Positions 8,548 to 64,000 of a stretch of 64,000 bases of DNA are shown piece by piece (the first letter of the stretch is position 1; the number at the start of each line of letters is the position of its first letter). Location of the stretch: NCBI GenBank assembly GCA_964605145.1, contig CAZSBG010000006.1:28788-92787 (forward strand). Direction: 5' to 3'. The translations under genes were made by a program, and so were the position numbers. The notes under the pieces are model-generated. The model was given only the letters and a program-made list of their open reading frames with translations. It did no database searches and was not told where the DNA came from. The DNA is from an uncultured Cytophagia bacterium. GTDB taxonomy: Bacteria; Zhuqueibacterota; Zhuqueibacteria; Thermofontimicrobiales; Thermofontimicrobiaceae.

Positions 8548-8785
8548 CACATCCTCACTTTTATTCCATTAAATTTTCACACTTCATCACCTAAATAAAT
8601 GTTATTTTATCAATTCAAAAAAGATCAACAAATAGTGTTTGGTCTTCATCGCTCTGCTACCAGCATTAAGTTGAATCAGCTTTAGCAGATTAAAGCTGAA
8701 CCGAAATATCTCTGAACCTCTGGCCTTTCAGAGATCATTCTGCAAGAGACTGAATAGTTTTCATCTTCAGCGATCTGCGCATTAA

Positions 8786-8852: not shown

Positions 8853-9566
8853 TTAATTCTGTTTAAATGTCTCTCTCTGAAAAAACTCAACCCTCTTTTT
8901 CTTGGAATTTAAGTTCAACTGTTTTAAATATCTAACCACCTGAAACCAGCTTAACTTTAAATTGCCGTACATCGGTGAATTTAACTCGCGCATAATTTTT
9001 ATGCTGCCATTCTCGGGATTTTCAATGACCAACTGTTTTATTTTTTCTTCGACGCTTTTATCCCCGGCATCCGACGAAATCATTTTATTTAAATACGCTT
9101 CTCTCTCGCTTGCATCGTCTTCGGAGTGAGAAGAATGACTCGTTTCTTCTTTATAACTTTCAGTGTCTCGTCTCACCTGACTGACACTTCGTTGTTCACC
9201 ACGCGGTCTGGATTTATCGAAATCAGCCACCGCATCTTCGATCGAATCGAAGGCTTTTAAAATATAATGAAATTCCAACAATTCAAATACTTCATACACG
9301 TCAGGAATCATGCCGATAAGCTTGAGGTCGCCACCTTTCTCCCGAATACCTTTAATCTCACTGATAAAAATACCCCAACCTGCGCTGCTTATGTAATCAA
9401 CATTGGACAAATCGATAATAATGTTGTAATTGTTGGCGTCTAACAAGGTTTCAAGAGAGTGTTCTAATTCTGCGGAAGTAGTCGTGTCAATATACCCACC
9501 CACCTTTATCACAGAAATATTGTTGTCAACACCTGTTTGTTTAACAGACAATTGAATTCCTTCCAT
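8853..9566 (-). CDS. STAS-domain protein (anti-sigma-factor antagonist-like) with a ~130-aa C-terminal extension
   Basis: The N-terminal ~110 aa (IKVGGYIDTTTSAELEHSLETLL ... DLSNVDYISSAGWGIFI) is a SpoIIAA/RsbV-type STAS fold. The C-terminal part is Ser/Glu-rich and then has a predicted helical domain. The track start is TTG at 9611; the ATG at 9566 preceded by GGAG is preferred. Confidence 0.75.
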   Translation of the reverse strand: MEGIQLSVKQTGVDNNISVIKVGGYIDTTTSAELEHSLETLLDANNYNIIIDLSNVDYISSAGWGIFISEIKGIREKGGDLKLIGMIPDVYEVFELLEFHYILKAFDSIEDAVADFDKSRPRGEQRSVSQVRRDTESYKEETSHSSHSEDDASEREAYLNKMISSDAGDKSVEEKIKQLVIENPENGSIKIMRELNSPMYGNLKLSWFQVVRYLKQLNLNSKKKRVEFFQRETFKQN

Positions 9567-9699
9567 CGAATACTCCAAGATGTATGATTCGCAAAATTTT
9601 CTTAAATTCAAATATAATAGAAAAACAAGTAAAAGTCAACAAAAAAATATGATTTACATCTTTCGTTTTTTTAATATACTATCTCATTTCTCTAAAAAT

Positions 9700-18500: not shown

Positions 18501-21500
18501 TCCGTAAAATCGATGAAAACATCTGCAGACGGACGAACATAAACCGCGCCTGAGTCTGCCACCTGAAAAGTTGTATTTGTATTTAAATAGGTTCCACTCA
18601 AATTTAGTTTTATTTTTGCCATTCCGCCCAAAACACCGGTACTTGTCACGCGGTAAATCAGCGTATCGGCTCCATTCCAGGACAGCGTTAAATTTGGATT
18701 ATTTTCAAATTCGAGTGGCGCCACGATGGTGTAATCATCCTGCTCATTCCCGGTAATTATGATGGATACATCCTCTCTGTTTGGCGGATCCAATTTTATG
18801 AATCCCGCTCCGCTATCTTCAACAGCCACGATAATTTGCCATTCGAAAGGACTCAGCGCTCTGACCGTATCCTGCGATGGCGAAATGGAAACAATTTTGA
18901 ACTTGCCTGGTCGCTGTACAGTGACTGTATCCGTCGAATCGACTGAGGGGCTGATAAAAATTTTATCAGGCTCCGTCGGTGTATTTTCTGCAAATGCGGT
19001 ATCAATTGAGGCGGAGAATACTTCATCCCAAATCCAGTCCGATGACGCCTGTACATTGAACTTTAGCGTATCCGTGCTCGCGCCTTGCACAATTTCAAGG
19101 GAATCCACCGGATTCAAAATAGTTGATGTACTATCACTAATTAACGACATTTTGATATTTTGGGCCGCGTCTTCTCCCTGGTTCTGGACAAGAACGGCTA
19201 TCTGGAAAACCTGATTATTATCCACATACGGCGCATTGGGCGCAATATTCACAGTTTTCAGAATTCGAATATCGGCCGGCATTTCTACCTTAATTGTTGT
19301 GCTATCTTCAGCGGTTTTTTCTTCCTGACTGTTTATCTCCTCGGCAAAAACCGATACATGAATCGTTCGACTGCCTGCAACAGAACCGGTTGTGTCCACT
19401 GAAAAAATCAGGCTGTCCGTAGCGCCGGAAGGCAGCTTGAAAAAGCCGAGTGTTTCAAAACTTATTGGGAAACTGACCACATAATTTGTGTCATCCCCAA
19501 AACTCACAAAGTCATTCAGGTGTGTCGAATCGATTGCAATATCTCCGCCACCGTTATTAGTTAGCGAAATAATAGTCTGCCAGGGCATTGATTGATTTAC
19601 TGTTACTTCTGGTTGGGATGTTCGAATATAATCTATAACAAGCTCACCCGGCGCCTGCACCGTTACCCCGGTCACTTTGCTTTTGATGATTTGACCGCTG
19701 ATCATATCATTCAAATAAACTGTTCCTCCAATGGTAACTGAACCGATTGTTGTGCCGGTTTCATCAACCGTTACTATCAGCGTATCGGTCAATCCGGCAT
19801 CGAGCAAACTATCACCACTTGTCTTGAATGTGTCAGGATATAACATCTGGTACTCGCTCGAAATATCTGAACCGCCATAGGTAAAATTTACCCGAGCGCT
19901 ATCCAGCCGCAACGGCGCTCCCCCATTATTGCGAATTACCATGTTCAGAAACCAGTTCTCAGCCTGACCGCTGGTGACCGTTCTCTGACTGGGATAAAAA
20001 TCGACTATTTCCAAATCAGATGCTTGTTTGACATACCATTGATCGGTTGTGTCTGCGTTCAAATCCGAATAGGGTAGTTCTGAGTTTTCATCGCTTGCAT
20101 AGACTTTTCCATCGATTGTTATGCTGTCGAGTGTGGCATTTGTGCCTACCGTTACGGTAAAGAACAGACTATCCAGGCTGTGCCCTGCGATTGAGGTTGG
20201 ATTCGTCGGATAAGGCACGAGCGCATATTCGTCACTCACATCTAAAATTGGTGGCGTTAAATTTGAATAAGAGAATCTCACTGAATCCACAATCGCCGTT
20301 GCATCCCCATTATTCTGAATCCTTGCGGAGATAATTGTATTTGTCCCCTGGGTAACGGTATCTGCATCAGCTTTCACTCTCAAAAATTGTAGTGAAGGAG
20401 GCGTTTGAACCAGCCATTTATCCGTTTCATTGGCTGCCACATCGCTTACAGAACTGCCATTTACCCTGCAATTAATGAAACCATCGATCTGGATTGAATC
20501 TGTCAATGCGTTTGACTTCACATTCACTAAAAAACTTAGGGTCTTATTTCCATTTCCTGGTAACACTGAAATCGTATCATTACGACTCACAATATAATCG
20601 CCTGAACGATTTGAATAACCGGGTGCAGGGCCGGTAAATTCTAATCCAGCGCCATCAGAAATTATCGTGGCATTTGAAGCGCCATGATTTTTCACGGCCA
20701 TCAGAACCGTTATATTTTGTTGATTGCGGCTCACTTTATCAAAATCTGAACTAACAGACAGAATCTCCAACCCGGAAATAATTATGCTGGTATCCCCAAC
20801 TGCACTTCCCCTGACAACACTATTCGCCTGAACGAGAGCCGTTCCACCTGTTACACCTGCATTGACAACGAATGAAATTTGGCCTGCTGTGTCTGATACA
20901 ACCTGTGTGCCTCCGATACCCGGATTTTCATCAGGTGTTGTAATGGTACCCAATGTTGTTGACACGGTGAAATATTCGCCGCTGGAAATTGGATTGTTAT
21001 CGCTGTCACGAATTGTATCCGACGTAACCACAGAAAACGAATCAGGATCGGCCGGTATTATTTCAGGAACAGGATGAAGTACAATTTCGCCTATCGGTAC
21101 GCCGGGATTTACAGTAATGAGTCCAGTCGTATCATTTTCTGCTGTAGCATGCACGGCCAGAATTTTTCCGTGCGCCGGCGCTGTTGATGGCGAGAAATCA
21201 AGCGTTGAACCGGTCCACAATACAGCCGGCGCTAATGTACTGTCACTGGACCAATCTACAACCGCCGGCCCGAGATAAACATTTCCTTCGTCATAAGCAG
21301 CCGCATACAGTGTCAATGTTTCATCGGCTGAAATGGTACGCGTCGTCACCACATTGCCGGCGCCATTATCTGCATCGCGAATGAGCACGTGGTGAATGGC
21401 TCCCACAGTAAATGTACCTGTCGAATCGGCTCCCACACTCACACTGTCAGCATAAATTCGTCCACTCGTATAGGGCGTAGCCGGACTGAACATTGTGCTC

Positions 21501-23656
21501 GTTCCCTGCAATGGAGTTGGCGTATCCAGATCTCCGGTGGTTCCCCAGTCTGCAACCACTTCTCGAATGTAATTATCATACTGGTCGTATCCTGCAGCGT
21601 AAAGGGATATTTGATCATCCAGATTCAACATATAATCACCAACCTCGGAGCCCAAACCACCCGGATTATCCCGAATGACAATGTGATTCAATCCATCTGG
21701 TTTCACATTGAAATTATTCGAAACACCACTCTCGCCGGAGCCGGCTGCAGTGATTTTATTATCCGTATATTTTTTTGTGATTGTTAAATTTCCTGACCAG
21801 GTGCCTGCACTGAAATTTCCTGTGGAACCGGGGCTCAAAGAACCGGACTCATCCGTCAAACTGACCGCATTTGTAAATCCGGTCACTATATTTTCGTATG
21901 CATCGTTTGCTTCAATAGTCACCGAGAAAGGTGTTCCAGCAGTCTGCGGGCTGGAAATATCTGAAATTGAAAAATGATCCAGTGATGCCGGGTTCACATT
22001 AAAGCTGTTTGACGTTCCGTTTTTATCGCTGCCATTGACAATGATTTTATTACTGGAACCAGTTTTCGTGACAATCACATTACCATTCCAGCTCCCTCCA
22101 CTGAAACTGCCTGAAACCTGGGGAGTGAGTGTGCCTGTTAAATCACTCATCGCCACAGGACCGGCGTACGTTGGTATTGTATTCCCTTCTCTATCCTCTG
22201 CCGTTACAGTTATCGAAAAAGAATTACCGGCTGTTTGTGGTGTTGAAATAGCGTCAATAGTAAAATGATCTAACGCTCCCACTTGTACATCAAAAGCATT
22301 TGATGTCCCGGTTTCGCCTCCGCCGGATCGCTGAACGCTGATCTGATCATTGGTAAAATCGGCTGTAATCTTCACCTGACCGTTCCATTCTCCGCCGCTG
22401 AAATTGTCACTCTGATTGGGCGAGACTGTCCCGCTATTATCCGAAATATCTACTTTTCCGGTAAAACTTGTTACGGTGTTATCATAATTGTCCTGGGCAG
22501 TAACTGAAATGGAAAAATATTCGCCCGCAGTTTTGGGAGAAGAAATCGGCCCGATGTAAAATTTTGCCAAACTTCCGGGATTCACATTGAATAAATTCGA
22601 TGTGCCAACTTTGGAACTCCCGGATGCTGTAATGTAATTATCGCTCTGGCTTTCCGTGATTGTTACGCTTTGCGTTAATGAACCTGAGCTAAAAATATTT
22701 GATGTTTCGTTGAGCGAACCGGTAAGATCGGTCAACAATACAGTGCCAGTAAAACTTTCCACAAGATTCTCATACTGATCCCTCGCAGTAACTGTAATGC
22801 TGAATGACGTCCCGGCCGTTTTTGGACTGGTGATTGTGTTAAATGTAAAATGATCCAGGCCGGCAGGCAAAACATCAAATTCAGATGACATGCCGGATAT
22901 ATCATTATACGTGGCTGTAATTTTATTATTCGACCTGCTTTTAGTAAACGTCACCGTACTATTCCAGACACCTGCTGTGATGCTGCCGGTAGATGTTGGG
23001 CTAATAGTATCGGTTAAATCTGTCAGCGCAACAGAAGATGTATGCGACGTGACCGTATTGTCGTATGCATCCTGTGCGGTAATTGTGACAGAAAAATTTG
23101 AACCAGCCGTTGCATCGCCACTTGTACTGACATCAAAATGATCCAGCGCTCCGGCAGCAATTGAAAAATTTGGTGTATTCCCGTCATCGATATGGGTGTA
23201 TCCCTGGGTCATGGTAATAATTTTTACGCTATAATTATCCGCATCCGGGTTATTCCCCACAGTTCCGATACTGATTTCCACCTCGGTTGATGCCGGAACT
23301 TTTGTTCCGGTGCCATCACGTTCGATCATGACCGAGTCACCATTAACATATTGTATGGAAACACCGCCATTGATACTGCCATCCTCCGAATCGGCAATTT
23401 GAACGCCCGTGAGATCGAATCCCGACGGAAAAATTAATTTAATTTTGCCATCCACCGGGATGCCGTCATCAGCATTATTCCCTGTCGCTGAAGTTGTGAA
23501 AGTAAAAGTATAAATCGCGGACTCCCCGGCAACATTATCACTCAAACTTGTACTCATATTTGCTAGATCACCTTGCGCAAATACTATAGTTGCATTCCCT
23601 GAAAAAATGAGAATTATTACTATTACGATCCCTGCTCTCAGATGTCTTATCCTCAT
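15566..23656 (-). CDS. Giant (~2,696-aa) cell-surface protein with tandem Ig-like repeats and a C-terminal type-A T9SS sorting domain
   Basis: Signal peptide MRIRHLRAGIVIVIILIFSGNATIVFA (ATG at 23656; the track start at 23671 is TTG). At least five ~95-aa tandem repeats share the motif LDHF..ISSPQTAG..FS.TVTA.D.Y.N...F.G.V.L. The last ~90 aa (NYPNPFGE...VYVARISTGNGKSALIKIAVIK) match the Por_Secre_tail / TIGR04183-type CTD. Confidence 0.85.
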   Translation of the reverse strand: MRIRHLRAGIVIVIILIFSGNATIVFAQGDLANMSTSLSDNVAGESAIYTFTFTTSATGNNADDGIPVDGKIKLIFPSGFDLTGVQIADSEDGSINGGVSIQYVNGDSVMIERDGTGTKVPASTEVEISIGTVGNNPDADNYSVKIITMTQGYTHIDDGNTPNFSIAAGALDHFDVSTSGDATAGSNFSVTITAQDAYDNTVTSHTSSVALTDLTDTISPTSTGSITAGVWNSTVTFTKSRSNNKITATYNDISGMSSEFDVLPAGLDHFTFNTITSPKTAGTSFSITVTARDQYENLVESFTGTVLLTDLTGSLNETSNIFSSGSLTQSVTITESQSDNYITASGSSKVGTSNLFNVNPGSLAKFYIGPISSPKTAGEYFSISVTAQDNYDNTVTSFTGKVDISDNSGTVSPNQSDNFSGGEWNGQVKITADFTNDQISVQRSGGGETGTSNAFDVQVGALDHFTIDAISTPQTAGNSFSITVTAEDREGNTIPTYAGPVAMSDLTGTLTPQVSGSFSGGSWNGNVIVTKTGSSNKIIVNGSDKNGTSNSFNVNPASLDHFSISDISSPQTAGTPFSVTIEANDAYENIVTGFTNAVSLTDESGSLSPGSTGNFSAGTWSGNLTITKKYTDNKITAAGSGESGVSNNFNVKPDGLNHIVIRDNPGGLGSEVGDYMLNLDDQISLYAAGYDQYDNYIREVVADWGTTGDLDTPTPLQGTSTMFSPATPYTSGRIYADSVSVGADSTGTFTVGAIHHVLIRDADNGAGNVVTTRTISADETLTLYAAAYDEGNVYLGPAVVDWSSDSTLAPAVLWTGSTLDFSPSTAPAHGKILAVHATAENDTTGLITVNPGVPIGEIVLHPVPEIIPADPDSFSVVTSDTIRDSDNNPISSGEYFTVSTTLGTITTPDENPGIGGTQVVSDTAGQISFVVNAGVTGGTALVQANSVVRGSAVGDTSIIISGLEILSVSSDFDKVSRNQQNITVLMAVKNHGASNATIISDGAGLEFTGPAPGYSNRSGDYIVSRNDTISVLPGNGNKTLSFLVNVKSNALTDSIQIDGFINCRVNGSSVSDVAANETDKWLVQTPPSLQFLRVKADADTVTQGTNTIISARIQNNGDATAIVDSVRFSYSNLTPPILDVSDEYALVPYPTNPTSIAGHSLDSLFFTVTVGTNATLDSITIDGKVYASDENSELPYSDLNADTTDQWYVKQASDLEIVDFYPSQRTVTSGQAENWFLNMVIRNNGGAPLRLDSARVNFTYGGSDISSEYQMLYPDTFKTSGDSLLDAGLTDTLIVTVDETGTTIGSVTIGGTVYLNDMISGQIIKSKVTGVTVQAPGELVIDYIRTSQPEVTVNQSMPWQTIISLTNNGGGDIAIDSTHLNDFVSFGDDTNYVVSFPISFETLGFFKLPSGATDSLIFSVDTTGSVAGSRTIHVSVFAEEINSQEEKTAEDSTTIKVEMPADIRILKTVNIAPNAPYVDNNQVFQIAVLVQNQGEDAAQNIKMSLISDSTSTILNPVDSLEIVQGASTDTLKFNVQASSDWIWDEVFSASIDTAFAENTPTEPDKIFISPSVDSTDTVTVQRPGKFKIVSISPSQDTVRALSPFEWQIIVAVEDSGAGFIKLDPPNREDVSIIITGNEQDDYTIVAPLEFENNPNLTLSWNGADTLIYRVTSTGVLGGMAKIKLNLSGTYLNTNTTFQVADSGAVYVRPSADVFIDFTEPVCRNINQYDIGQVNTNQAFSVRSKIRNTGGEQVDNVLVSLTAPGYIIPSVNIDNILPSGEAIATFNVAAQSVATEQVKFTVRIESAISHGSGLPATIGGASDSTALVRVHDPALLKISINKEHSIYSIGQVAPFQVQIENLGTADVDASGELALFMPQNYFVVVDQQQKSSDTTSFEINETVEWQVVPPSYASSNDTIVAKISKPPLDENTGSFALIENTDPFDSLVVRTVPLELAVESFEISSPEGALDDTLSTLQNFWVQVDIMKSENITSANARLNLPAGYRFAPGTDSIKANVADVAGWELIAPENAHSNEKWIKVLVTGTVGGDEVTASDSISVVVENRATLLIDRAWISWPSTDSTLSMGQEFDLSAIVINSGDAPLEGAAYLSIDFGATGVTTEDDTVKPFQPDIPVTWRLLAPEVETLKAPIVVTINTIPKDVNTNEKAMVPTRSKYYYVQTQQSANAWIENLRIVSPVGAIDKILSTHQSFQIEADVSWFNCTGAPSVQLQLEGGFTTPESYPKLPVGVGDQGTVNWTITTPGGTIDDQHIWMKLTAQDANSRISFTRTSDSLEVDVVRRAEIQLKGKILSPASALDGIVSTNQNFVVSAYLSKTGDANILGNFNATLTLPEGQGYSIAQDLTQTAAYNDSLFWTITAPTSERDPSNIAIDLVSWPEDENSNLPVAAEAILLKNVSIPISAEEKSVTVSMLPTTTKNTIARGDTGVSMMGLELLASGDAFSNNILFTGVKIKLKDRFGVPVTNPAQVISRVCVVNNQQNNEVFGQITAIPTSNPIEILFSQIDTLKPEIENQVQFKVDIATTAEISDFQIAIDSVNSLYLYDEESGQTPKLKNVNGQTLEALNFESEPSVIIEADFDKAFSNYPNPFGEIGRPVTNFVYYLDEDTEVKIQIYTLIGELVWSRTYSELEPQGRKGLHDSDVIWDGRNGQGYKVLNGVYVARISTGNGKSALIKIAVIK
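15569..15850 (-). other. Type-A T9SS C-terminal sorting domain of the giant surface protein
   Basis: YPNPF ... IWDGRNGQGYKVLNGVYVARI ... K terminal pattern. Confidence 0.75.
21750..23160 (-). repeat. In-frame tandem coding repeats (~285 nt units, about five copies) encoding Ig-like domains near the 5' end of the giant gene
   Basis: Recurrent nucleotide and protein-level units (...LDHF.ISDISSPQTAG.PFSVT..A.DAYEN.VT.FT..V.LTD.SG.L.P...G.FS.G.W.GN..ITK...NKI...GS...G.SN.FNVNP..L). Confidence 0.7.
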
Positions 23657-23704
23657 TTGATGCTCTTCCAAAGTTTTTGTTCGTCAATTCTTTTTCATCT
23701 GTCT

Positions 23705-44861: not shown

Positions 44862-47294
44862 TCACTGATTATTTTCTTTTACAATTCTTGCAACATCGGC
44901 AATCTTGTCATCTTTTCCCAGCTTAATGAGGCGTATTCCTTGTGTTGCTCTCCCCATTTTTCGAAGGGCGTTAATTGGTTGACGAATTACCTTTCCTTTT
45001 GTTGTAATGATCATCAGATCATCATCGTCAAATACTTCCTTGATAGTGACCATTTTTCCAACTTTATTAGTTGTATTCACGGTAACAATCCCCTTGCCCC
45101 CGCGTTTCGTCACTCGATACTCTGTGATAGCGGTTCGCTTGCCATATCCATTCTCAGTTACGACTAATAACGTCGAATCCTGGCGAACGGTGACCATTCC
45201 AACAACCCGATCTCCCTTTGCAAGGTTGATTCCACTGACCCCGCTAGCCTGTCTTCCCATATCACGCACATCTGATTCAAAAAAGTGAATTGCTTTGCCG
45301 AATCTCGTTCCCAAAACAATTTCCTGAGAGCCATCCGTCAGCCGTGCCTCTATTAAGTCATCACCATCCCTGATTGTTGCTGCATTTATGCCACCTCTGC
45401 GGGGATTGCTAAAAGCTGACAATACAGTTTTTTTCACCAATCCCTTCCGAGTGGCCATGATAACAAAGTGCTCATCATCGAAATCTTTTACGTTTACGAT
45501 GGATGCGATACTTTCATCTCGCTGAATATCAATCAAATTAACAATTGCTCGACCTTTCGATCCCTTTCCTGCCTGCGGAATTGAATATACTTTTAACCAA
45601 TAACATCTTCCTTTGTCTGTGAAAATCAGCATGTAATGATGTGTTGATGCAATGAAAATATGTTCAATAAAATCTTCCACATTGGTGCTGGCGCCGGAAT
45701 GACCGGTTCCTCCCCGAATTTGTCTCCTGTAACCGGACACCGGAAATCTTTTGATAAATCCGGAATGAGAAATTGTGATGACCATATCTTCTTCTGCGAT
45801 CATATCTTCTACAGAAAATTCTTCTGTTTTGATGATGATTTCAGTGCGCCGTTCATCACCGAATTTCTCTTTCAAGCCAATTAATTCTTCCTTAATAATA
45901 TTCATTCGCATTGGCTTGCTATCTAAAATCGCTCTTAATTTGTTGATTAATTTAATTGTCTCTAAATATTCTTCTTCAATTTTCTTTCTCTCCAGCCCGG
46001 TCAGTCTTTGCAGCCTCATATCCAATATTGCCTGTGCCTGAATTTCTGACAATTTGAATCGTTTCATCAATCCCTGTTTCGCAGTTTCAGGATTTTTCGA
46101 TTTTTTAATCAGAGCGATTATTTCATCGATATTATCCAGCGCAATTTTCAACCCTTCTAAAATATGGGCGCGCTTTTCAGCTTTATCCAATTGATATCTG
46201 GTTCGCCTGACAACGACTTCATGACGAAAATCGATGAAGTGCTGCAAAATTTCTTTCAAATTCAGGACCAGGGGAACACCGTCCACCAGAGCGAGCATTA
46301 TGACGCCAAAGGTTACCTGCATTTGCGTGTGACGATATAACTGATTGAGTATTACATGCGCGTGCACATCTTTGCGCAATTCGATGACAATTCGTAATCC
46401 ATCTTTATCCGATTCATCACGTATTTCTGTGATTCCCTCAATTTTACGATCATTCACAAGTGCGGCAATTTTCTCGATTAAATTTGCCTTGTTGACCATG
46501 TAAGGAATTTCACTGATCACAATCTGAAATTTTATGCCCCGAACGGATTCAACATTGGCCCTAGCACGAACTATAATTCTCCCTCTCCCGGTTGTATAGG
46601 CTTCCTTAATACCTTCTACACCATAAATGATCGCCCCGGTTGGAAAATCAGGTCCTTTGATGAATTGCATCAGGTCGTTAATCTGAATTTCAGGAGTCTC
46701 AATTTGGGCAATCAAGGCATCCACAACCTCTGTTAAATTATGCGGAGGAACATTCGTAGCCATGCCAACAGCAATACCGGATGAACCATTGACAAGCAAA
46801 TTCGGCAATAATGTGGGAAGCACCAAAGGTTCTTTCAGAGATTCATCAAAATTTGGGGTGAAATTGACTGTATCTTTATCAAGATCTTTCAGGAATTCTT
46901 CAGCAATACTTGCCAACTTTGCTTCGGTGTACCTCATCGCTGCCGGAGAATCGCCATCTATCGATCCGAAATTACCCTGGCCATTCACCAGCGGATACCG
47001 TAAAGAAAATTTTTGAACCATTCGAACCATTGAAAAATAAACTGCTGAATCGCCATGCGGATGATATTTACCCAAGACCTCACCAACAATTCTTGCACTT
47101 TTTTTGTACGACGAGTTAGGTCGCAATCCCAATTCGTGCATTCCAAAAAGCACTCTTCGGTGCACCGGTTTCAAACCATCACGAACATCAGGAAGCGCAC
47201 GCGATACAATAACCGACATCGAATAATCGATGTAGGAATCTTTCATTTCCTCTTCAATGTATATGGGAAGAATTCTCTCTCTATTGATTTCCAT
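44862..47294 (-). CDS. gyrA: DNA gyrase subunit A
   Basis: [16 protein letters not shown], the active-site Tyr region, and C-terminal beta-pinwheel repeats. 810 aa. Confidence 0.95.
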
Positions 47295-47316: not shown

Positions 47317-49263
<1,947 letters not shown>

Positions 49264-51902: not shown

Positions 51903-52450
51903 TTTAGACTCCTTTATCGTTCAATTTATTTTATCGAAAATAATATTGTATAATATAAAGAATAAAAATAAAATTATCAATACTTTTTTCTATCCATAAA
52001 AGTTAATCAGTTTTGTGTGATTTCAATTTGGATACAGAACAAAATGTGACGCTTGTAATATAAAATATATATAATAAATATTAAAGAATAGTTATTATAG
52101 TATAGATGTTGATAACTGACTTCTATGAAAAATTTATTTGTTATTTTCAATAAAAATAAAGGAATTAAAGAGAAGGAGTGTTGTGAATAACTTTGGAATG
52201 AATGTTGAGAAATTGTTAATATGGTTACGGGTTATTCACGTGTATTTAAAATTTTTGAAACTGGCTATGTTTTGGCTAAATTATTCACATCGATTGATAT
52301 CGTTCATGTGTTCGTCTGGGGATAAATTGTGAATAATAAAAAATGATATAATAAATTGGTTGTACATGAATTAAACACATTTTTACTGAAATTTGCAAAA
52401 TGGAAATGTTGATAACCAGTATATTTTCATTTTGGAATAAGTTCAAGAAT
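51903..52450. promoter_or_regulatory. Candidate oriC: AT-rich dnaA-dnaN intergenic region with four DnaA boxes
   Basis: TTATTCACA (matching TTATNCACA) at 52281-52289, and its reverse complement TGTGAATAA at 52182-52190 and 52328-52336. TTATTCACG at 52232-52240. Weaker TTATCAACA-type sites nearby. Classical position downstream of dnaA. Confidence 0.6.
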
Positions 52451-53818
52451 TTATATACTGGCGATCTCGATTTTTCTCTCCAAAACAGATAAATCTTCTT
52501 TCACCGCTTTGTCATGTTTTCTGAGTTGATCGATAGTTTGAATTGCATGAACGACAGTGGAATGGTCTCTGCCTCCAAAATGTAAGCCAATTGTCTTCAG
52601 GGAATGATGTGTCATTCGTTTTGCCAGATACATGGATACTTGTCTTGCCAGAGCAATTTCTTTTTTACGGTTTTTTGCTCGGATGAGATCTTCCGGGATG
52701 GAATAATGTTCGCAGACAATTCGTTGAATTTCCTCAATACTCAAATTTCGCTTGGATCCCAGACTGAGATCTTTTAATACGCTTTTTGCCAGGTCTGTGG
52801 TGATATCTTTTCCCTGGAGCGAGGAAATTGCAAATAATCTGATCAGAGAACCTTCGAGTTCGCGAATATTTGATGTGATATTTGTTGCAAACAAATGGAT
52901 AATTTCCTGCGGAAGCCTGAGGTTGTTTTCTTCAGCTTTTTTCTGAAGAATTGCAATTCGGGTTTCAAGATCAGGAGGTTGAATATCCACAACTAATCCC
53001 CATTGGAAGCGGGATGTGAGTCTTTCTTCCATTCCTTTGAGTTCTTTAGGGGGACGATCTGAAGTGAGAACAATCTGTTTTCCTTTTTGATGCAAAGAGT
53101 TGAATGTATGAAAAAACTCTTCTTGGGTTCGCTCTTTGTTAGTAAAAAATTGAATATCGTCGACCAGAAGAATATCTACATTTCTATAATTGTTGCTGAA
53201 TTCAGTTGTCTTGTTATTTTGGATGGAGTCGATAAATTCGATTGTGAATTTCTCACTAGATACGTATAAAACCCGTTTGGCCAATCCTTCAATTTTGGTA
53301 TAGTTGCCAATTGCCTGAATGAGGTGTGTTTTTCCCAATCCAACTCCGCCGTAAATGACAAGCGGATTGAATGTGGTTTTACCCGGGGATTGCGATACAG
53401 CAAGGGAAGCAGCTCGGGCAAATTGATTATTGGCGCCTTCAACAAAATTTTCGAAAGTGTATCGTTCGTTGAGCTGACTTTCGAAATCGACATTATTGTA
53501 AATAGGTTTTTCCTGAACAGGAATCTTGATTGAATCGGAAGAACCGTTGATGACCTCAGGCTTGTCATTCACTACGATCGAGTAGAGCAATTCCGCATCA
53601 TCGCCAATCGTACGCTGCAATGCTCGATTAATTAATTCTTTGTAATGCGTCTCCAGAAATTCATAGAAGAACTGGCTCGGGATTTGAACTGTCAATTTGT
53701 TTTTATCTAAATTGACTGGCGTAATGGGCTTGAACCAGGTTATGAAAGTTTGATCGTTTAAATTCTCTTTTATGTTAGATAAGAATTTTGACCAGATGTC
53801 TACGCAATTGGGTGTCAT
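52451..53818 (-). CDS. dnaA: Chromosomal replication initiator DnaA
   Basis: AAA+ Walker A GGVGLGKTHL, sensor motifs, C-terminal DNA-binding domain (IGLHFGGRDHSTVVHA). Confidence 0.95.
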   Translation of the reverse strand: MTPNCVDIWSKFLSNIKENLNDQTFITWFKPITPVNLDKNKLTVQIPSQFFYEFLETHYKELINRALQRTIGDDAELLYSIVVNDKPEVINGSSDSIKIPVQEKPIYNNVDFESQLNERYTFENFVEGANNQFARAASLAVSQSPGKTTFNPLVIYGGVGLGKTHLIQAIGNYTKIEGLAKRVLYVSSEKFTIEFIDSIQNNKTTEFSNNYRNVDILLVDDIQFFTNKERTQEEFFHTFNSLHQKGKQIVLTSDRPPKELKGMEERLTSRFQWGLVVDIQPPDLETRIAILQKKAEENNLRLPQEIIHLFATNITSNIRELEGSLIRLFAISSLQGKDITTDLAKSVLKDLSLGSKRNLSIEEIQRIVCEHYSIPEDLIRAKNRKKEIALARQVSMYLAKRMTHHSLKTIGLHFGGRDHSTVVHAIQTIDQLRKHDKAVKEDLSVLERKIEIASI

Positions 53819-57157: not shown

Positions 57158-58543
57158 ATGATTTCATTTGATGAGCACACAATCGCTGCTATTTCAACGC
57201 CGCCTGGACATGGTGGAATCGCTATTGTAAGAATGAGCGGTCATGAAGCCATACCGATTGCTGATAAAGTTTTCAGGGGAAAAAGCAGTGTTCATGAAAT
57301 AGAACCCTGGAAAGCCATGCTTGGGAAAATTCATGATGGTGACGTTGTACTGGATGAGGTTGTATTAATTGTCTATAAAGCTCCATTTTCATACACGAAA
57401 GAAGATGTCGTTGAAATAAGTTGTCACGGCGGCGTGTATGTTTCACAACGAATTTTAGAATTATTACTTCATCATGGGGCCAGAATTGCAAATCCTGGCG
57501 AATTTTCTTTTCGGGCATTTATGAATGGTCGTCTCGATCTATCTCAGGTCGAGGCTGTTGGTACTTTAATTCAGTCAAAGACCGAATCCAGCATGCAGGC
57601 TTCACTGAGGCAGCTTGAAGGTTCCTTATCCTCAATGATTCATGAAATTCGAAATGAATTGATGGATTCATGTTCGTTGCTTGAACTGGAACTTGATTTC
57701 CCTGAAGAAGATGTTGAATTTGTAAATCGACAGGGTTTCATTGAACTGATTTTGAAAAGAGAACAGAAAATACAATATCTGATTCACACGTATAAATATG
57801 GAAGAATCGCCCGAGAAGGCGTGAAAGTTGTTATCGTTGGCAAACCAAATGTGGGAAAATCCAGTCTGTTGAACAGACTACTGAAAGAGGACAGGGCAAT
57901 CGTAACGGAATTGCCTGGGACTACACGGGACGTCCTTGAAGTGCAACTCGATTTAAATGGAATATTGTTTCGAATATTTGATACGGCCGGAATTGCTGCG
58001 ACGAAAAATTTAGTCGAGATGGAAGGAATATCTCGTGCCAAAAAAGTACTCGAATCAGCAGATATAGTTTTGCATGTTTGTGATGGATCGAATGATCTTG
58101 ATGAAGAAGATTTTGAAATTGTAGACCATTTGAATAATTTGACCGAAAAAAAAATCATTCGGATATTTAATAAATATGATTTGGTAGAAAAAAATGATTA
58201 TGAAGAATTGAACGACGACTCAATTTCCAAAGTCAAAATATCTGCAAAAACCGGGTTTGGAATCGATGCTTTGGAAAGAGAACTGAGTGATTCAGTGATA
58301 TTCGATAAAGAGAATATGTTGAATGAGGAAATAATCATCACGGAAGTTCGACATTTGGAACAATTGAAAGCAACTTTAGCGAGCTTGCAGAAAGCGAAAG
58401 AGCAGGCACAAAAAAACGTTTCATCTGAATTTATTGCTCTTTACCTCAGGGAAGCGCTCGATCATTTAGGTGAAATTATTGGCGTGGTATCAAGTGAAGA
58501 TATATTGAATAATATTTTTTCTAAATTTTGTATTGGTAAATGA
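57158..58543 (+). CDS. mnmE: tRNA modification GTPase MnmE
   Basis: TIAAISTPPGHGGIAIVRMSG N-terminus, G-domain GKPNVGKSSLLN, C-terminal CIGK. Confidence 0.95.
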   Translation: MISFDEHTIAAISTPPGHGGIAIVRMSGHEAIPIADKVFRGKSSVHEIEPWKAMLGKIHDGDVVLDEVVLIVYKAPFSYTKEDVVEISCHGGVYVSQRILELLLHHGARIANPGEFSFRAFMNGRLDLSQVEAVGTLIQSKTESSMQASLRQLEGSLSSMIHEIRNELMDSCSLLELELDFPEEDVEFVNRQGFIELILKREQKIQYLIHTYKYGRIAREGVKVVIVGKPNVGKSSLLNRLLKEDRAIVTELPGTTRDVLEVQLDLNGILFRIFDTAGIAATKNLVEMEGISRAKKVLESADIVLHVCDGSNDLDEEDFEIVDHLNNLTEKKIIRIFNKYDLVEKNDYEELNDDSISKVKISAKTGFGIDALERELSDSVIFDKENMLNEEIIITEVRHLEQLKATLASLQKAKEQAQKNVSSEFIALYLREALDHLGEIIGVVSSEDILNNIFSKFCIGK

Positions 58544-58565
58544 AATTGTTTCACGTGGAACAATT
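58541..58565. repeat. 25-nt motif TGAAATTGTTTCACGTGGAACAATT containing a near-perfect palindrome, copy 1, beginning at the mnmE stop codon
   Basis: Identical 25-mer at 60455-60479. Arms AATTGTT/AACAATT flank a CACGTG core. Confidence 0.8.
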
Positions 58566-58579
58566 GTCGAGATTTTGGT

Positions 58580-60457
58580 ATGGTACGTAATCAAGATAAA
58601 TATGATGTCATCATTGTAGGGGCGGGACACGCGGGCTGTGAAGCTGCGCTGGTTGCCGCGCGTATGGGAGCAAAGACCCTGCTCATTACGATGAATATAT
58701 CCACAGTGGCGCAGATGTCCTGTAATCCTGCCATTGGCGGCTTGGCAAAAGGACATCTGGTGCGGGAGTTGGATGCGCTTGGCGGTGAAATGGGAAAGGT
58801 GACCGATGCAACCGGAATTCAATTTCGAATGCTGAATAAATCCAAAGGCCCGGCTGTATGGTCTTTGAGGGCGCAGGCGGACAGACAGGAATATTCCGCT
58901 AAAATGCGGGAAGTATTGGAAAACCAGGAAAATCTGGATTTGCTGCAAAGCGAGGTTGTTGCTTTGCTCATAGATGCGAATAAGTGTGTCGGTGTAAAAA
59001 CATTCACCGGTTCTGAAATTTCGTCAAAATCGGTCATTCTTACGGCCGGAACTTTTTTGAATGGTTTGATTCATATTGGCATGTTTAGTTACGATGCTGG
59101 AAGATCAGGTGAGTTTGCTGCAAAAGGGTTGACAGAGAATTTGATGCAATTGGGATTTGTCGCAGGTCGTCTAAAAACCGGTACGCCGCCTCGAATCGAT
59201 GGAAAGTCTTTGGATTTTGAAAGCATGACAATTCAGCACGGTGATGAAAATCCCGTTCCCTTTTCATTTCATACCAAAGAATTAAAAGTCGATCAATTAC
59301 CTTGTTATTTAACAACGACAAATGAAAAAACTCATAAAATTATCAACTTTGGATTGGATCGTTCGCCATTATTTAGCGGAAAGATTATTGGTATTGGACC
59401 GAGATATTGTCCATCTATTGAAACAAAATTGGTGCAGTTTCCCGATAAAATTTCTCATCAATTGTATCTGGAGCCGGAGGGACGAAATACCACCGAGTAT
59501 TATTTGAACGGATTTTCAACAAGCTTGCCCGAGGATATTCAGATCAATGCATTGCAAACAATTCCTGGATTGGAGCGCGCAAAAGTGACGCGGTTAGGGT
59601 ATGCCATCGAATATGATTATTTTCCCTCGAATCAATTATACGCTTCGCTTGAAACAAAAATTATGGAAAATCTATATTTTGCCGGACAATTAAACGGAAC
59701 ATCAGGATATGAGGAAGCGGCTGTTCAGGGATTTATGGCTGCTGTGAATGCGGTTCGGAAAAATAACAATGAAAAGCCGATTGTATTGAATAGGTCTCAG
59801 GCATACATCGGCGTTTTAATCGATGATTTGATCACCAGAGACGTAAATGAACCATACAGGATGTTTACATCACTGGCAGAATACAGGCTATTATTGAGGC
59901 AGGATAATGCGGATTTGCGGTTGGGTGAAATAGGTTATAAATTGGGATTGAATTCATCAGAATATTATTCGAGGATTCAAAAAAAACAGAAATTGATAGA
60001 ACAATACATCTGCGAATTTAAAAATATAAGAGTATCGCCCGAGAAAGTCAATTCAATTCTTAAAAATAAAAAAACCTCTCCAATATCAGAAAAGGAGAGT
60101 GTGTATCAGTTGTTGAAAAGACCGGAAATGAAAATTCAGGATTTTGAAAAAAATTATAAAACGTCAATTTCTGATGCTGTTGAAAATGGACTGATGGATG
60201 AGGTGTTAGAGCAGGTTGAGATAGAAATAAAATATGAAGGTTACCTAAAGCGGCAAAATGAGCAAATCATTCGATATGAAAAAATGGAAAATAAATCCAT
60301 TCCAAATAATTTTAATTATAATCAAATTGGCTCGCTTTCAAATGAAGCAAGGGAAAAATTGAAAAGAGTGAAGCCTGCATCCATTGGCCAGGCATCGAGA
60401 ATTGCCGGGGTTTCGCCAGCAGATATTTCTATTTTATTGCTTCATCTTAAAAATTGA
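58580..60457 (+). CDS. mnmG: tRNA uridine 5-carboxymethylaminomethyl modification enzyme MnmG (GidA)
   Basis: FAD-binding YDVIIVGAGHAGCEAA N-terminus; 625 aa. Confidence 0.95.
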   Translation: MVRNQDKYDVIIVGAGHAGCEAALVAARMGAKTLLITMNISTVAQMSCNPAIGGLAKGHLVRELDALGGEMGKVTDATGIQFRMLNKSKGPAVWSLRAQADRQEYSAKMREVLENQENLDLLQSEVVALLIDANKCVGVKTFTGSEISSKSVILTAGTFLNGLIHIGMFSYDAGRSGEFAAKGLTENLMQLGFVAGRLKTGTPPRIDGKSLDFESMTIQHGDENPVPFSFHTKELKVDQLPCYLTTTNEKTHKIINFGLDRSPLFSGKIIGIGPRYCPSIETKLVQFPDKISHQLYLEPEGRNTTEYYLNGFSTSLPEDIQINALQTIPGLERAKVTRLGYAIEYDYFPSNQLYASLETKIMENLYFAGQLNGTSGYEEAAVQGFMAAVNAVRKNNNEKPIVLNRSQAYIGVLIDDLITRDVNEPYRMFTSLAEYRLLLRQDNADLRLGEIGYKLGLNSSEYYSRIQKKQKLIEQYICEFKNIRVSPEKVNSILKNKKTSPISEKESVYQLLKRPEMKIQDFEKNYKTSISDAVENGLMDEVLEQVEIEIKYEGYLKRQNEQIIRYEKMENKSIPNNFNYNQIGSLSNEAREKLKRVKPASIGQASRIAGVSPADISILLLHLKN

Positions 60458-60479
60458 AATTGTTTCACGTGGAACAATT
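60455..60479. repeat. 25-nt palindromic motif copy 2, beginning at the mnmG stop codon
   Basis: Exact repeat of 58541-58565. Confidence 0.8.
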
Positions 60480-60498
60480 TCCAGAATGATCAATCAAT

Positions 60499-61170
60499 AT
60501 GAAAGAATTAGATTTAGTTGAAGATTTTTTTCAGGATATCGGTAGAGCGTTCTCACCTGAAATTAAAAAACAACTTATTCAATATTTGGACCTGTTGTGT
60601 GCGTGGAACTCAAAAATAAACCTGGTATCCCGATTTGACAAATCCAATTTAATTAAACGGCATGTTTTAGAGTCACTTTTAATTTTGGAAGCAATCGATT
60701 TTCCAGACGGATCAAAAATTGTGGATGTCGGGAGCGGTGGAGGTTTTCCTGGTATACCGCTTTCAATATGCTGCAGCAAATCCCATTTTTCATTAGTTGA
60801 GTCGAAAAGAAAAAAAACATTATTTTTGAAAGAGGTCGTGTCTCAATTGGACTTGAAAAATGTGGATGTACATAATGACAGGCTCGAAAAGTTTGTTGAA
60901 GTGACGCAATGGCAGCAATATTTTGATTTCGGATTAAGTCGTGCAGTAGCTGACTTAGATGTGGTTTTTCGGTCGGTAAAAAATCTTTTAAAACCACAGG
61001 GTGTGTATGTTGCCTGGAAAGGTGGGAATATTCAATCAGAGATAGAAAATATCAAATCTGAATTTTCTAATATATTTATAAAAACAATTCAAATGAATGA
61101 ACGATATGTTAATAAAAATCTAAATAGGTGTTTTGTAGCTGTTTTCAGGAAGCAAAATGGAGGAATATAA
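60499..61170 (+). CDS. rsmG: 16S rRNA (guanine527-N7)-methyltransferase RsmG (GidB)
   Basis: IVDVGSGGGFPGIPL SAM-binding motif. Confidence 0.9.
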   Translation: MKELDLVEDFFQDIGRAFSPEIKKQLIQYLDLLCAWNSKINLVSRFDKSNLIKRHVLESLLILEAIDFPDGSKIVDVGSGGGFPGIPLSICCSKSHFSLVESKRKKTLFLKEVVSQLDLKNVDVHNDRLEKFVEVTQWQQYFDFGLSRAVADLDVVFRSVKNLLKPQGVYVAWKGGNIQSEIENIKSEFSNIFIKTIQMNERYVNKNLNRCFVAVFRKQNGGI

Positions 61171-62083
61171 ATTGGCCCAAAATTTATTTGATGAACTGAA
61201 AAATCTTGTTACAGAGAAAGTCAATCCAGAAACACGCGATATCGATTCCAAAAATATTGAAGAGATTCTCAGGATAATTAATAATGAGGATAAAAAAATT
61301 CCCCATATTGTCGAAAAGGAGATTCCTTATATTGAAAAGGCTGTGGAAATAGTGGTATCAGCATTTAAACAAGGTGGGCGATTAATTTATGTTGGCGCAG
61401 GGACAAGTGGCAGACTCGGGGTGTTGGATGCTTCTGAATGTCCGCCAACTTTTGGTACGAATCCTGAAATGGTGCAGGGTATCATTGCCGGCGGTTTTGC
61501 TGCGTTGGTAAGTGCCCAGGAAGGCGCTGAAGATAAAAAAGAAGTTGGCGCTGAGGATTTGATGGCTTTAAATTTCAATAAAAATGATGTGGCATGTGGT
61601 ATAGCCGCCAGCCGAAGAACACCGTATGTTATCGGTGCCATCGAAAAGGCACGGGAAATTGGGGCGAAAACAATTTATGTAACGTGCACTCCCAGGGAAG
61701 AAATGAATTTAAATGTAGATGTGTCTATTTGTCCGGTCGTCGGACCTGAGGTGATAATGGGTTCCACACGCATGAAGTCAGGCACTGCGCAGAAGTTGGT
61801 ATTGAATATGATTACCACATCATCCATGATTCGGTTGGGAAAAGTATATGGAAATATGATGGTCGATCTGCAGATGACTTCTAAAAAACTGGAAGAACGA
61901 TCGAAAAGAACTGTAATGTTGGTGACTGGTGTTGATTATGAAAAAGCAGCGGAAGTTTTAAACGAAGCAGGCGGTCATGTAAAAACAGCGTTGGTCATGA
62001 TATTAAAAGAAGTGAATAAAGAGACCGCACAGGAACACTTAAAACTGGCGAATGGGTTCGTTCGCGGCGCTCTGAAAATATAA
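61157..62083 (+). CDS. murQ: N-acetylmuramic acid 6-phosphate etherase MurQ
   Basis: SIS domain; GRLIYVGAGTSGRLGVLDASECPPTFG and GSTRMKSGTAQKLVLNMITT motifs. Confidence 0.9.
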   Translation: MEEYKLAQNLFDELKNLVTEKVNPETRDIDSKNIEEILRIINNEDKKIPHIVEKEIPYIEKAVEIVVSAFKQGGRLIYVGAGTSGRLGVLDASECPPTFGTNPEMVQGIIAGGFAALVSAQEGAEDKKEVGAEDLMALNFNKNDVACGIAASRRTPYVIGAIEKAREIGAKTIYVTCTPREEMNLNVDVSICPVVGPEVIMGSTRMKSGTAQKLVLNMITTSSMIRLGKVYGNMMVDLQMTSKKLEERSKRTVMLVTGVDYEKAAEVLNEAGGHVKTALVMILKEVNKETAQEHLKLANGFVRGALKI

Positions 62084-62093
62084 AGATTAAGAT

Positions 62094-64000
62094 ATGATTT
62101 TGGAAGACATAAAAAGTATCATATTAGAATCTCCCGGTTTAAAAAAAGTATTTGCTCAAGTTAAAACTGAATATCAAATTCAAATAAAAGGGCTTGCAGG
62201 GTCTCTCAAAGCCCTTTTTTTAGTTTTGCTGCATGAGAAAATCAAGAGACCTGTGATTTATATTTCAAGTGACAGTGAGCAAGAGGAAATTGTACGGGAT
62301 GATCTTGAAGTGATGATGGAAAATAACGGCGTGATTTATGTACCAAAAATGTCCGATGCCTCATTTCGAGGTTTGGATTTGGATGCTGCCAAGAAAGGAC
62401 AGTTATTATCATCACTTGAGCAATTGGTAGAAGGCATACCCAATATTGTCATTATTCCATCTAAAAATTTATATCACAAAATTCCATCTGCAAAGTGGAT
62501 TAAACAGCAAAGCCTTAAATTTGAGATCGGGAAAGAATATCATTTTGATGAGATAAAAGAGAATTTAGTTGATATGGGATTTAATCGCGAATCTATTGTT
62601 GAGGAGTGGGGAGAGATGAGTATCCGTGGCGGGATTATTGATGTTTATCCTTTTTCCAGCGATTATCCCTATCGCATTGAATTTTTTGGCAATATTATTG
62701 AATCGATACGTGTTTTTGATCCAAAAAATCAGCTTTCTATTGACAGAGTAGGTGAACTCACTATTTATCCACAAATATCTGACGAACAGAATAATTTTAA
62801 TGAAATACCATTCGAATCGCTGCTTAATTTTTTTCAACATGACAGCATCATATTTTTTGACGAACCAGAGTTGATTAAAAAAGAATATGAGGAGTATTAC
62901 AATTTCCTTCACAAACAGGAATTTCTAAATGATGATTCTGAATCAGAAATTGATGAATCAGAAAGATTGGTTCTTTGGGAAGATTTATTGAATAAAACAG
63001 AAAAATTTCAAACCATTTCACACAATAGTTTCTCTGGTTCGAAGAATGAAAAGCAGATCGATTTTTCATCACAACCCCAGGAATCACTTAAAGGAAATAT
63101 CAAATTACTTAAAAAGAAAATCGATTTATTCATCCGTTCGAAAGGGGAATCAGACCAAAAAATATTTTTTCTCTGTGGGAGTTCAGACCAGGTAGAGCGA
63201 ATAACAGACATTTTTGAAGAAGAAAAAATCGATCTTAATAGTTTAATTATTAAAGATTTGGCTCTTAATCAAGGATTTGTTTTTTCTGATGTTGGATTGG
63301 CTATTTTTACAGATAATCAATTTTATGGCCGTTCAATGAGATGGCGCAAAAGAAAAAAACTTCCTAAGGGATTGACAATAAATGAATTAAGCTCGCTAAA
63401 AAGTGGGGACTTTGTCGTTCATGTCGATCATGGAATTGGTCAATATCAGGGCTTGAAAAAAATTACTGTTCAGAAAAATGAGAGGGAATGCTTCAGTGTT
63501 AGTTATAGAGATGGTGATATGTTATATGTACCGTTGGAAAGAATGAATCGTATACAAAAATATTCAGCCAAAGAAGGTATGGTTCCTTCTCTTTCAAAAC
63601 TTGGAAGCAAGGAATGGGATAAGCTAAAAAAGAGGACAAAAAAGCATATTAAGGAGATTGCAAACGATTTAATAGCCCTTTACGCTAATCGAAAAGCGCA
63701 ATATGGATTCACATTTTCAAAAGATACTTTATGGCAAAAAGAATTAGAAGCATCATTTGAGTTTGAAGACACACCTGACCAGAAAAAAGCAACCGAAGAA
63801 ATAAAAGTTGATATGGAAAGTCGCTCTCCGATGGATCGACTGGTGTGCGGGGATGTTGGTTATGGAAAAACTGAAGTCGCGCTGCGAGCCGCATTCAAAG
63901 CAGTTGAAAATGGAAAGCAGGTTGCAGTGTTGGTGCCCACAACGATTCTTGCCCTACAGCATTACTCTTCATTTAAATCGAGACTGAAAAACTACCCGAT
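62094..64000 (+). CDS. mfd: Transcription-repair coupling factor Mfd, N-terminal ~635 aa; the gene continues beyond the window
   Basis: UvrB-homology N-terminal domain, RNAP-interacting region (GDFVVHVDHGIGQYQGL), start of helicase Walker A (GDVGYGKTEVALRAAF). Absent from the ORF track because there is no stop codon in the window. Confidence 0.85.
   Translation, partial: MILEDIKSIILESPGLKKVFAQVKTEYQIQIKGLAGSLKALFLVLLHEKIKRPVIYISSDSEQEEIVRDDLEVMMENNGVIYVPKMSDASFRGLDLDAAKKGQLLSSLEQLVEGIPNIVIIPSKNLYHKIPSAKWIKQQSLKFEIGKEYHFDEIKENLVDMGFNRESIVEEWGEMSIRGGIIDVYPFSSDYPYRIEFFGNIIESIRVFDPKNQLSIDRVGELTIYPQISDEQNNFNEIPFESLLNFFQHDSIIFFDEPELIKKEYEEYYNFLHKQEFLNDDSESEIDESERLVLWEDLLNKTEKFQTISHNSFSGSKNEKQIDFSSQPQESLKGNIKLLKKKIDLFIRSKGESDQKIFFLCGSSDQVERITDIFEEEKIDLNSLIIKDLALNQGFVFSDVGLAIFTDNQFYGRSMRWRKRKKLPKGLTINELSSLKSGDFVVHVDHGIGQYQGLKKITVQKNERECFSVSYRDGDMLYVPLERMNRIQKYSAKEGMVPSLSKLGSKEWDKLKKRTKKHIKEIANDLIALYANRKAQYGFTFSKDTLWQKELEASFEFEDTPDQKKATEEIKVDMESRSPMDRLVCGDVGYGKTEVALRAAFKAVENGKQVAVLVPTTILALQHYSSFKSRLKNYP

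Follow-up and report, generated by a model that had tools for sequence, protein, structure and literature searches.

Genes and palindromes at the locus

The window (the whole 64-kb stretch of DNA analysed) carries a minus-strand group, gyrA, gyrB, recF, dnaN and dnaA, and after it rnpA, yidC, mnmE, mnmG and rsmG on the plus strand. A cluster of DnaA-box-like 9-mers in the dnaN-dnaA spacer is likely to be oriC, and the GC skew changes sign at approximately 52 kb. Two copies of a 25-nt block lie on either side of mnmG, and each encloses a 16-bp palindromic core, named here parS-1 and parS-2 as predicted partition sites. The features are given below; L001 and L125 denote a locus from a related genome and an independent assembly, respectively, both described later.

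52107-52415, no strand assigned: six DnaA-box-like 9-mers in the dnaN-dnaA spacer, at 52107, 52182, 52281, 52317, 52328 and 52407
52451-53818, minus strand: dnaA (TIGR00362, E = 1.6e-166), an origin-region marker
57158-58543, plus strand: mnmE (TIGR00450, E = 1.5e-120), with predicted parS-1 adjoining its stop codon
58541-58565, plus strand: copy 1 of the 25-nt block, composed of the mnmE TGA stop (58541-58543) and the 22-bp extended palindrome AATTGTTTCACGTGGAACAATT (58544-58565)
58547-58562, no strand assigned: predicted parS-1, the 16-bp core TGTTTCACGTGGAACA (plus strand) or TGTTCCACGTGAAACA (minus strand) in the mnmE-mnmG spacer; L001 ortholog at 6596-6611
58580-60457, plus strand: mnmG/gidA (TIGR00136, E = 1.3e-264), with one predicted parS on each side
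60455-60479, plus strand: copy 2 of the 25-nt block, composed of the mnmG TGA stop (60455-60457) and the extended palindrome AATTGTTTCACGTGGAACAATT (60458-60479)
60461-60476, no strand assigned: predicted parS-2, the same 16-bp core in the mnmG-rsmG spacer; L001 ortholog at 8514-8529, also present in L125
60499-61170, plus strand: rsmG/gidB (TIGR00138, E = 8.2e-47), downstream of predicted parS-2

Both plus-strand copies of the 25-nt block, TGAAATTGTTTCACGTGGAACAATT, are exact and lie 1914 bp apart. The mnmE and mnmG ORFs end at 58543 and 60457, and each copy opens with the TGA of its gene, which bears out the preliminary description of an identical palindrome beginning at both stop codons. 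The identity runs 9 nt past the 16-bp core, and the bases directly outside the block differ between the two copies. No match to the 25-mer is expected by chance (0 in 100 dinucleotide-preserving shuffles), and a search allowing up to 3 mismatches identified no further copy in the 64-kb window. An independent short-read assembly (L125, a 2.7-kb contig from Logan SRR7048225) is identical to positions 59831-62546 of the window, a span that covers copy 2 of the block at the end of mnmG; thus, at least this copy is not an assembly artefact.

Identity with chromosomal parS

On the minus strand (TGTTCCACGTGAAACA), both 16-bp cores match the chromosomal parS consensus TGTTNCACGTGAAACA with 0 mismatches. 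This sequence is the parS consensus of Bacillus subtilis, Corynebacterium and Burkholderia chromosome I in PMC7022226 (Table 1 and section 2), which also gives close variants of it as parS in many further phyla and places parS sites mostly in the ori domain. The number of exact matches to TGTTNCACGTGNAACA expected by chance is 0.00, and no other site within 2 mismatches of it occurs in the 64-kb window. The location agrees as well: the DnaA-box cluster is about 6.1 kb from parS-1 and about 8.0 kb from parS-2, and dnaA and the GC-skew switch, too, are found 6 to 8 kb from the sites.

Like chromosomal parS, the sites sit among the origin genes rnpA, yidC, mnmE, mnmG and rsmG. As in the Spo0J/ParB system of B. 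subtilis, whose parS (TGTTNCACGTGAAACA) is the identical 16-bp palindrome, they are few in number (two in the window), and neither dnaA nor the likely oriC is more than about 8 kb away. Two differences from known chromosomal systems were noted. Both sites adjoin stop codons, a positional detail that is absent from L001, and rsmG is followed by murQ and an mfd-like gene, whereas in many bacteria parA and parB stand at this place. A motif search identified no ParA or ParB gene in the 64-kb window, and neither did tblastn at E <= 1, for which five ParB queries confirmed by Pfam and two of ParA were used. Large ORFs were also considered as SMC candidates and rejected, the 1139-aa ORF being MetH.

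Conservation in a relative

A Ca. Zhuqueibacterota MAG locus of 18.5 kb (L001) encodes proteins 49-88% identical to those of the window (DnaA 88%, MnmG 76%, MnmE 62%). It contains exact parS cores at the same two junctions, mnmE-mnmG and mnmG-rsmG, and nowhere else in the 18.5 kb. The comparison of orthologous intergenic regions that the preliminary description had proposed as a check therefore finds the motif conserved at both junctions. Over the four sites (two in the window and two in L001), the 18-bp block TTGTTTCACGTG[G/A]AACAA is invariant, while the two genomes differ in the adjacent spacer bases and outer flanks, in the stop codon (TGA in the window, TAG in L001) and in the distance from stop codon to core. 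The sites are thus kept while their non-coding surroundings diverge, and the overlap with the stop codon was rejected as a conserved feature because stop codon and spacing both differ. Retention of both positions between genomes whose proteins are 49-88% identical indicates that they are of old standing and have been kept by selection. The copy number is two in the 64-kb window and two in the 18.5 kb of L001, all of them orthologous and origin-proximal; parA and parB were not found within the 18.5 kb of L001.

Occurrence in metagenome contigs

The exact 22-mer AATTGTTTCACGTGGAACAATT is present in more than 120 metagenome contigs. Among 120 examined (median 5.4 kb), all chosen for carrying the 22-mer and therefore showing associations rather than providing an unbiased survey of genomes, 73 encode an origin or partition marker, including MnmG (46), ParA (23), ParB (21) and RsmG (18). 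ParB_N and HTH_ParB Pfam domains were identified in all eight ParB candidates tested, and ParA/MinD-type ATPase domains in both ParA candidates tested. The association with parA and parB is thus found in other bacteria. The placement of the 22-mer varies: some copies precede genes, some lie within parB itself, and both orientations are found. In some genomes it adjoins parAB and dnaA with no mnm gene present, and in L007 and L030, two distant metagenome lineages (MnmG approximately 53% identical), parS flanks mnmG on both sides.

At other parS cores, again in contigs selected for the 22-mer, the flanks are enriched in A at position -2 (0.71-0.80), A or T at -1 (0.90) and A at -3 (0.46-0.58), compared with 0.28 in the background. 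A general preference for A/T around parS cores accounts for the AAT...ATT extension in both copies. The 25-nt identity is therefore explained by the 16-bp core, these generally preferred flanks and the TGA, and requires no added function.

Sequence identity with parS, the position near the origin, conservation at orthologous junctions and association with parAB and origin genes elsewhere were all observed. On this sequence evidence, both palindromes are almost certainly chromosomal parS, that is, predicted ParB binding sites near the replication origin. The palindrome is thus a well-known, ordinary sequence rather than a novel element acting in RNA or in regulation.

Alternative explanations

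The parS sites stand tightly against the ends of mnmE and mnmG in the window, in the Zhuqueibacterota relative, and in L007 and L030, and selection for some further role might lie behind this placement. ParB clamps within the mnmE-mnmG-rsmG unit, or a hairpin in its mRNA, would then modulate read-through and tie the expression of tRNA/rRNA-modification genes to origin segregation, in a lineage in which parAB is unlinked from the gid genes. We consider such a role very unlikely and mention it as a speculation. Since a palindrome can form a fold in RNA too, the sites may have some secondary function in the transcript.

That a transcribed hairpin at the mnmE and mnmG 3' ends is itself the primary element, whether for processing, for stabilising the 3' end or for termination without a U-tract, is very unlikely. 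Both copies do lie on the sense strand directly after stop codons, and folding predicts a hairpin of 9-11 pairs, one of them U-G, capped by an ACGU loop, much as the preliminary description had drawn it. The fold at the mnmG site has -10.9 kcal/mol (z = -2.04), but that at the mnmE site (-7.9 kcal/mol, z = -0.23) is no stabler than shuffled sequence, and the orthologous hairpins of L001 are weak (-7.9 and -5.6 kcal/mol, z = -0.74 and -0.55). Across the window and L001 sites, the exact parS sequence is kept including the loop bases, and the stem shows no covariation. Occurrence elsewhere upstream of genes, within parB and in either orientation fits a DNA site, not a strand-specific RNA.

An intrinsic terminator combines a G+C-rich stem-loop with a U-tract; the stems here are A/T-rich (-7.9 and -10.9 kcal/mol), no U-tract follows, and a terminator scan called no terminator-like site at 58541-58565 or 60455-60479, in agreement with the earlier judgement that this is no simple intrinsic terminator. 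A search of Rfam 15 gave no match at the gathering score anywhere in the window and none overlapping either site at E <= 10. With weak folds, no terminator call and no Rfam match, an RNA hairpin or terminator was rejected as the primary explanation, and the proposal of an RNA processing or stability element is not supported. REP/BIME palindromes and intrinsic terminators resemble the sites of the window in being short palindromes placed right after stop codons, but the window sites have a weak A/T-rich stem, no U-tract or terminator call, and only two copies in the 64 kb, both origin-proximal.

The preliminary description had also offered a palindrome bound by a dimeric protein, with CACGTG at its centre, and, as a possible function, an operator that coordinates tRNA-modification genes. 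The first of these proposals was right in kind. The second is not supported: the 16-bp core is exactly the parS consensus, dnaA and the likely oriC are 6-8 kb away, and elsewhere the sequence is associated with parA/parB and origin genes. A dyad-symmetric site in both spacers of the mnmE-mnmG-rsmG string would suit a dedicated transcription factor co-regulating the three genes, and ParB-type complexes dampen the transcription of nearby genes in some systems, so some by-product effect on expression is possible. However, the sites lie downstream of stop codons instead of covering promoter elements, and no promoter-like match that stands out overlaps them; such matches number 37 in the region against 34.0 expected, which is chance level. 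Other genomes, moreover, have the sequence beside parAB and dnaA without mnm genes. A dedicated operator is accordingly hardly credible; gene order, which is conserved near the origins of bacteria, explains the linkage to mnmE and mnmG, and a function in tRNA modification does not.

A generic REP- or MITE-like interspersed palindrome, or a recent functionless local duplication, might be suggested by two copies 1914 bp apart that are identical for 9 nt beyond the core, but it is extremely improbable: searches of the 64-kb window with up to 3 mismatches gave only these two copies (none else within 2-3 mismatches), which speaks against a REP-like repeat, both positions are kept in L001 despite proteins only 49-88% identical, and the parS flank preference together with the stop codon accounts for the identity beyond the core.

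Proposed ParB-parS mechanism

For the two predicted parS sites, the mode of action may be drawn from characterised ParABS systems. ParB (Spo0J) dimers would bind the double-stranded sites near the origin, as established knowledge of such sites suggests, with each ParB subunit presumably contacting one half of the palindrome through its helix-turn-helix domain. Binding to parS would trigger CTP-dependent closure of the dimer into a sliding clamp, a loading mechanism described for characterised systems (PMC7053999, PMC8494293, PMC9449133). The clamp would then spread over several neighbouring kilobases, here taking in oriC and dnaA, and the resulting partition complex would be moved by ParA and would recruit SMC condensin. 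Through ParA movement and SMC, the new origins would be separated and the chromosome arms organised. The sites are most likely ParB loading sites, and by analogy ParB binding, spreading and SMC loading would take place in this organism too.

Other sites recognised by ParB-family proteins are distinguishable from those of the window. Noc, a ParB paralog, is to our knowledge restricted to Firmicutes; its binding sites (NBS; consensus ATTTCCCGGGAAAT) have a CCCGGG centre in place of the CACGTG of parS and are spread over the chromosome except the terminus. Like the window sites, they are palindromes of about 14-16 bp read by a helix-turn-helix protein of the ParB family, but the window sites match parS exactly and do not match NBS. 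The plasmid and phage centromeres P1 parS and F sopC are likewise cis-acting sites that nucleate a ParB-type partition complex; these have plasmid-specific sequences and architectures (PMC7022226, section 2), whereas the window sites carry the sequence universal to chromosomes, in the setting of a chromosomal origin.

Significance

Taken by themselves, the parS sites mark a centromere-like region and matter little beyond annotation. A practical lesson is that an exact CACGTG-centred palindrome beside gidA/mnmG should be compared with parS first, and only then considered for a role as an RNA element or an operator. We found no description of the partition systems of Ca. Zhuqueibacterota in the literature, and the supplements of the paper on the phylum hold no parB or K03497 entries. 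In combination with the GC-skew switch, the cluster of DnaA boxes and dnaA itself, the parS sites fix the position of the origin in a genome of this uncultured, recently named phylum. These observations suggest that, in the Ca. Zhuqueibacterota lineage, the segregation of origins and the loading of SMC follow the standard ParB-parS route.

The origin region and its repeated palindrome

The window has the layout of a textbook replication origin. Minus-strand genes (gyrA, gyrB, recF, dnaN and dnaA) are followed on the plus strand by rnpA, yidC, mnmE, mnmG, rsmG, murQ and a long ORF resembling mfd, and GC skew shifts from about -0.17 to about +0.16 near 52 kb. The likely oriC lies between dnaA and dnaN rather than upstream of dnaA.

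Features of the origin region (window positions)
44862-47294, minus strand, gyrA
47317-49263, minus strand, gyrB
52107-52415, dnaN-dnaA spacer, six DnaA-box-like 9-mers with one mismatch to TTATCCACA; likely oriC
52451-53818, minus strand, dnaA
ORF end 58543, plus strand, mnmE (TIGR00450, E = 1.5e-120)
58541-58565, first copy of the 25-mer; 16-bp centre (parS-1) at 58547-58562
ORF end 60457, plus strand, mnmG (TIGR00136, E = 1.3e-264)
60455-60479, second copy of the 25-mer; 16-bp centre (parS-2) at 60461-60476
61157-62083, plus strand, murQ, after rsmG
62094 to past the window end, plus strand, mfd-like ORF with the motif GDVGYGKTEVA

The 25-mer TGAAATTGTTTCACGTGGAACAATT occurs in two exact copies, with 0 matches expected from dinucleotide-preserving shuffles of the window. 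The ORF ends of MnmE and MnmG mean that each copy starts with its gene's TGA, confirming the placement at both stop codons made in the preliminary description. Directly beyond the 25 nt the two copies are unlike each other. An independent assembly (L125, a 2716-bp Logan contig from SRR7048225) is identical to window positions 59831-62546, which include the copy at the mnmG stop.

Probable identity as parS

Both copies have the same 16-bp centre, TGTTTCACGTGGAACA (plus strand) or TGTTCCACGTGAAACA (minus strand), and the minus-strand 16-mer shows no mismatch to TGTTNCACGTGAAACA at either site. Exact matches to TGTTNCACGTGNAACA expected by chance number 0.00, and no further site within two mismatches of it was found in the 64 kb. 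The same string appears in passages of PMC7022226 as the consensus for chromosomal parS, a centromere-like site to which ParB/Spo0J binds. The paper gives it for Bacillus subtilis (10 sites, 8 of which fall within the ori domain), Corynebacterium glutamicum and Burkholderia chromosome I, and almost identical variants for Caulobacter, Hyphomonas, Myxococcus and Pseudomonas. Both copies are very probably canonical parS centromere sites, and predicted ParB sites, near the replication origin of a Zhuqueibacterota-like genome. The distance to the likely oriC is about 6.1 kb for parS-1 and 8.0 kb for parS-2; the sites are 1914 bp apart and flank mnmG. The finding is real but ordinary, parS being already known.

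parS in metagenome contigs

More than 120 metagenome contigs contain an exact copy of the 22-bp extended palindrome AATTGTTTCACGTGGAACAATT. Among 120 fetched stretches (median 5.4 kb), 73 carry one or more markers of an origin or of partition (MnmG 46, ParA 23, ParB 21, RsmG 18, MnmE 8, DnaA 3); all were chosen for carrying the 22-mer, so these counts describe its associations and are not an unbiased survey. Pfam searches placed ParB_N and HTH_ParB domains in all eight ParB candidates tested (E = 1e-29 to 1e-37) and ParA/MinD-type ATPase domains in both ParA candidates tested. In some contigs (for example, L011) parS lies inside the parB gene; B. subtilis likewise has a parS site within spo0J. 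At 30 loci with full-length mnmG, parS lies within 120 nt downstream in 10 and within 120 nt upstream in 10, and two loci (L007 and L030; MnmG about 53% identical) carry it at both sides of mnmG, as the window does.

Some contigs contain dense arrays of exact parS cores, far exceeding the few scattered sites that are usual. At L042:4008-6592, adjoining dnaA (7197-8549) and dnaN, there are 19 copies spaced about 100-200 bp from one another; L093:8035-9250, L117:3764-4917, L027:5167-6245 and L068:4495-5566 have 7-12 copies each.

The identity of 25 rather than 16 bases was examined in parS cores other than those used for fetching loci (L005-L124), a biased sample in that each locus was chosen for one 22-mer copy. 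Across 133 unique cores, A reaches 0.80 at -2 and 0.58 at -3 (background 0.28) and A/T 0.90 at -1, the opposite flank being the mirror image; without repeat arrays and with one core per locus (57 loci), the values are A 0.71 at -2, A/T 0.91 at -1 and A 0.46 at -3 and -4. The extended consensus in this biased sample is roughly aAW-TGTTNCACGTGNAACA-WTt. Thus, the AAT...ATT extension is a common property of parS, the TGA stop supplies the other three shared bases, and the 25-nt identity needs no added explanation.

Conservation and alternative explanations

Among the genomes found, the closest is L001, a Candidatus Zhuqueibacterota MAG (FCB group) that shares the window's gene order and has protein identities of 88% for DnaA, 86% for MurQ, 76% for MnmG, 71% for YidC, 62% for MnmE and 49% for RsmG. 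Comparison of the orthologous intergenic regions showed that the 18.5 kb of L001 contain parS cores at just two places, after mnmE (6596-6611) and after mnmG (8514-8529), the same junctions as in the window. Across all four sites TTGTTTCACGTG[G/A]AACAA is invariant, whereas the outer flanks, the stop codon (TAG versus TGA) and the stop-to-core distance (3 or 6 extra bases) are not conserved. What is under selection, then, is the parS sequence and roughly where it lies, rather than its overlap with the stop codon.

The preliminary description had also offered a protein-binding palindrome, which was right in kind; its proposed role as an operator for the tRNA-modification genes is unlikely, because other genomes carry the identical sequence next to parAB or dnaA in the absence of mnm genes, and promoter-like matches around the sites are at chance level. 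An RNA element, the other function proposed there, is not supported: the sites do fold as A/U-rich hairpins of -7.9 kcal/mol (z = -0.23) and -10.9 kcal/mol (z = -2.04), but those at the orthologous L001 sites are less stable (z = -0.74 and -0.55). An Rfam search of the whole window returned no family at its threshold, and at E <= 10 no match overlapped the sites. A terminator scan found no terminator-like site at either copy, in agreement with the earlier remark that the motif is not a simple intrinsic terminator. A REP-like repeat is unlikely, as the 64 kb hold just two copies, each at a conserved position near the origin.

Other genes in the window

A 2701-aa ORF on the minus strand (15566-23671), without an NCBIfam hit at E <= 1e-10, adjoins a PorV/PorQ-family gene (13626-15548); it may encode a type IX secretion cargo protein. 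In a 1297-aa ORF on the minus strand (9700-13593), an RsbW-like anti-sigma kinase domain is joined to phosphatase- and response-regulator-like regions. The ORF adjoins an anti-sigma-factor antagonist gene (8853-9611), and together (8853-13593) they look like a partner-switching module.

Partition genes and proposed mechanism

In bacteria parAB is often found downstream of rsmG. Here rsmG is followed by murQ and the mfd-like ORF in place of parA/parB, in an order identical to that of L001, and no ParA or ParB gene was found in the 64-kb window or in the 18.5 kb of L001.

As outlined in passages of PMC7053999, PMC8494293, PMC8299390, PMC9449133 and PMC7022226, ParB dimers in characterised systems recognise the 16-bp parS duplex, which catalyses their CTP-dependent closure into a sliding clamp that diffuses to flanking DNA; the ParB-parS complex also engages ParA and brings SMC onto the DNA close to the origin. 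By analogy, the window's two parS sites, separated by 1.9 kb and lying 6-8 kb from oriC, would seed a single partition complex across the origin region.
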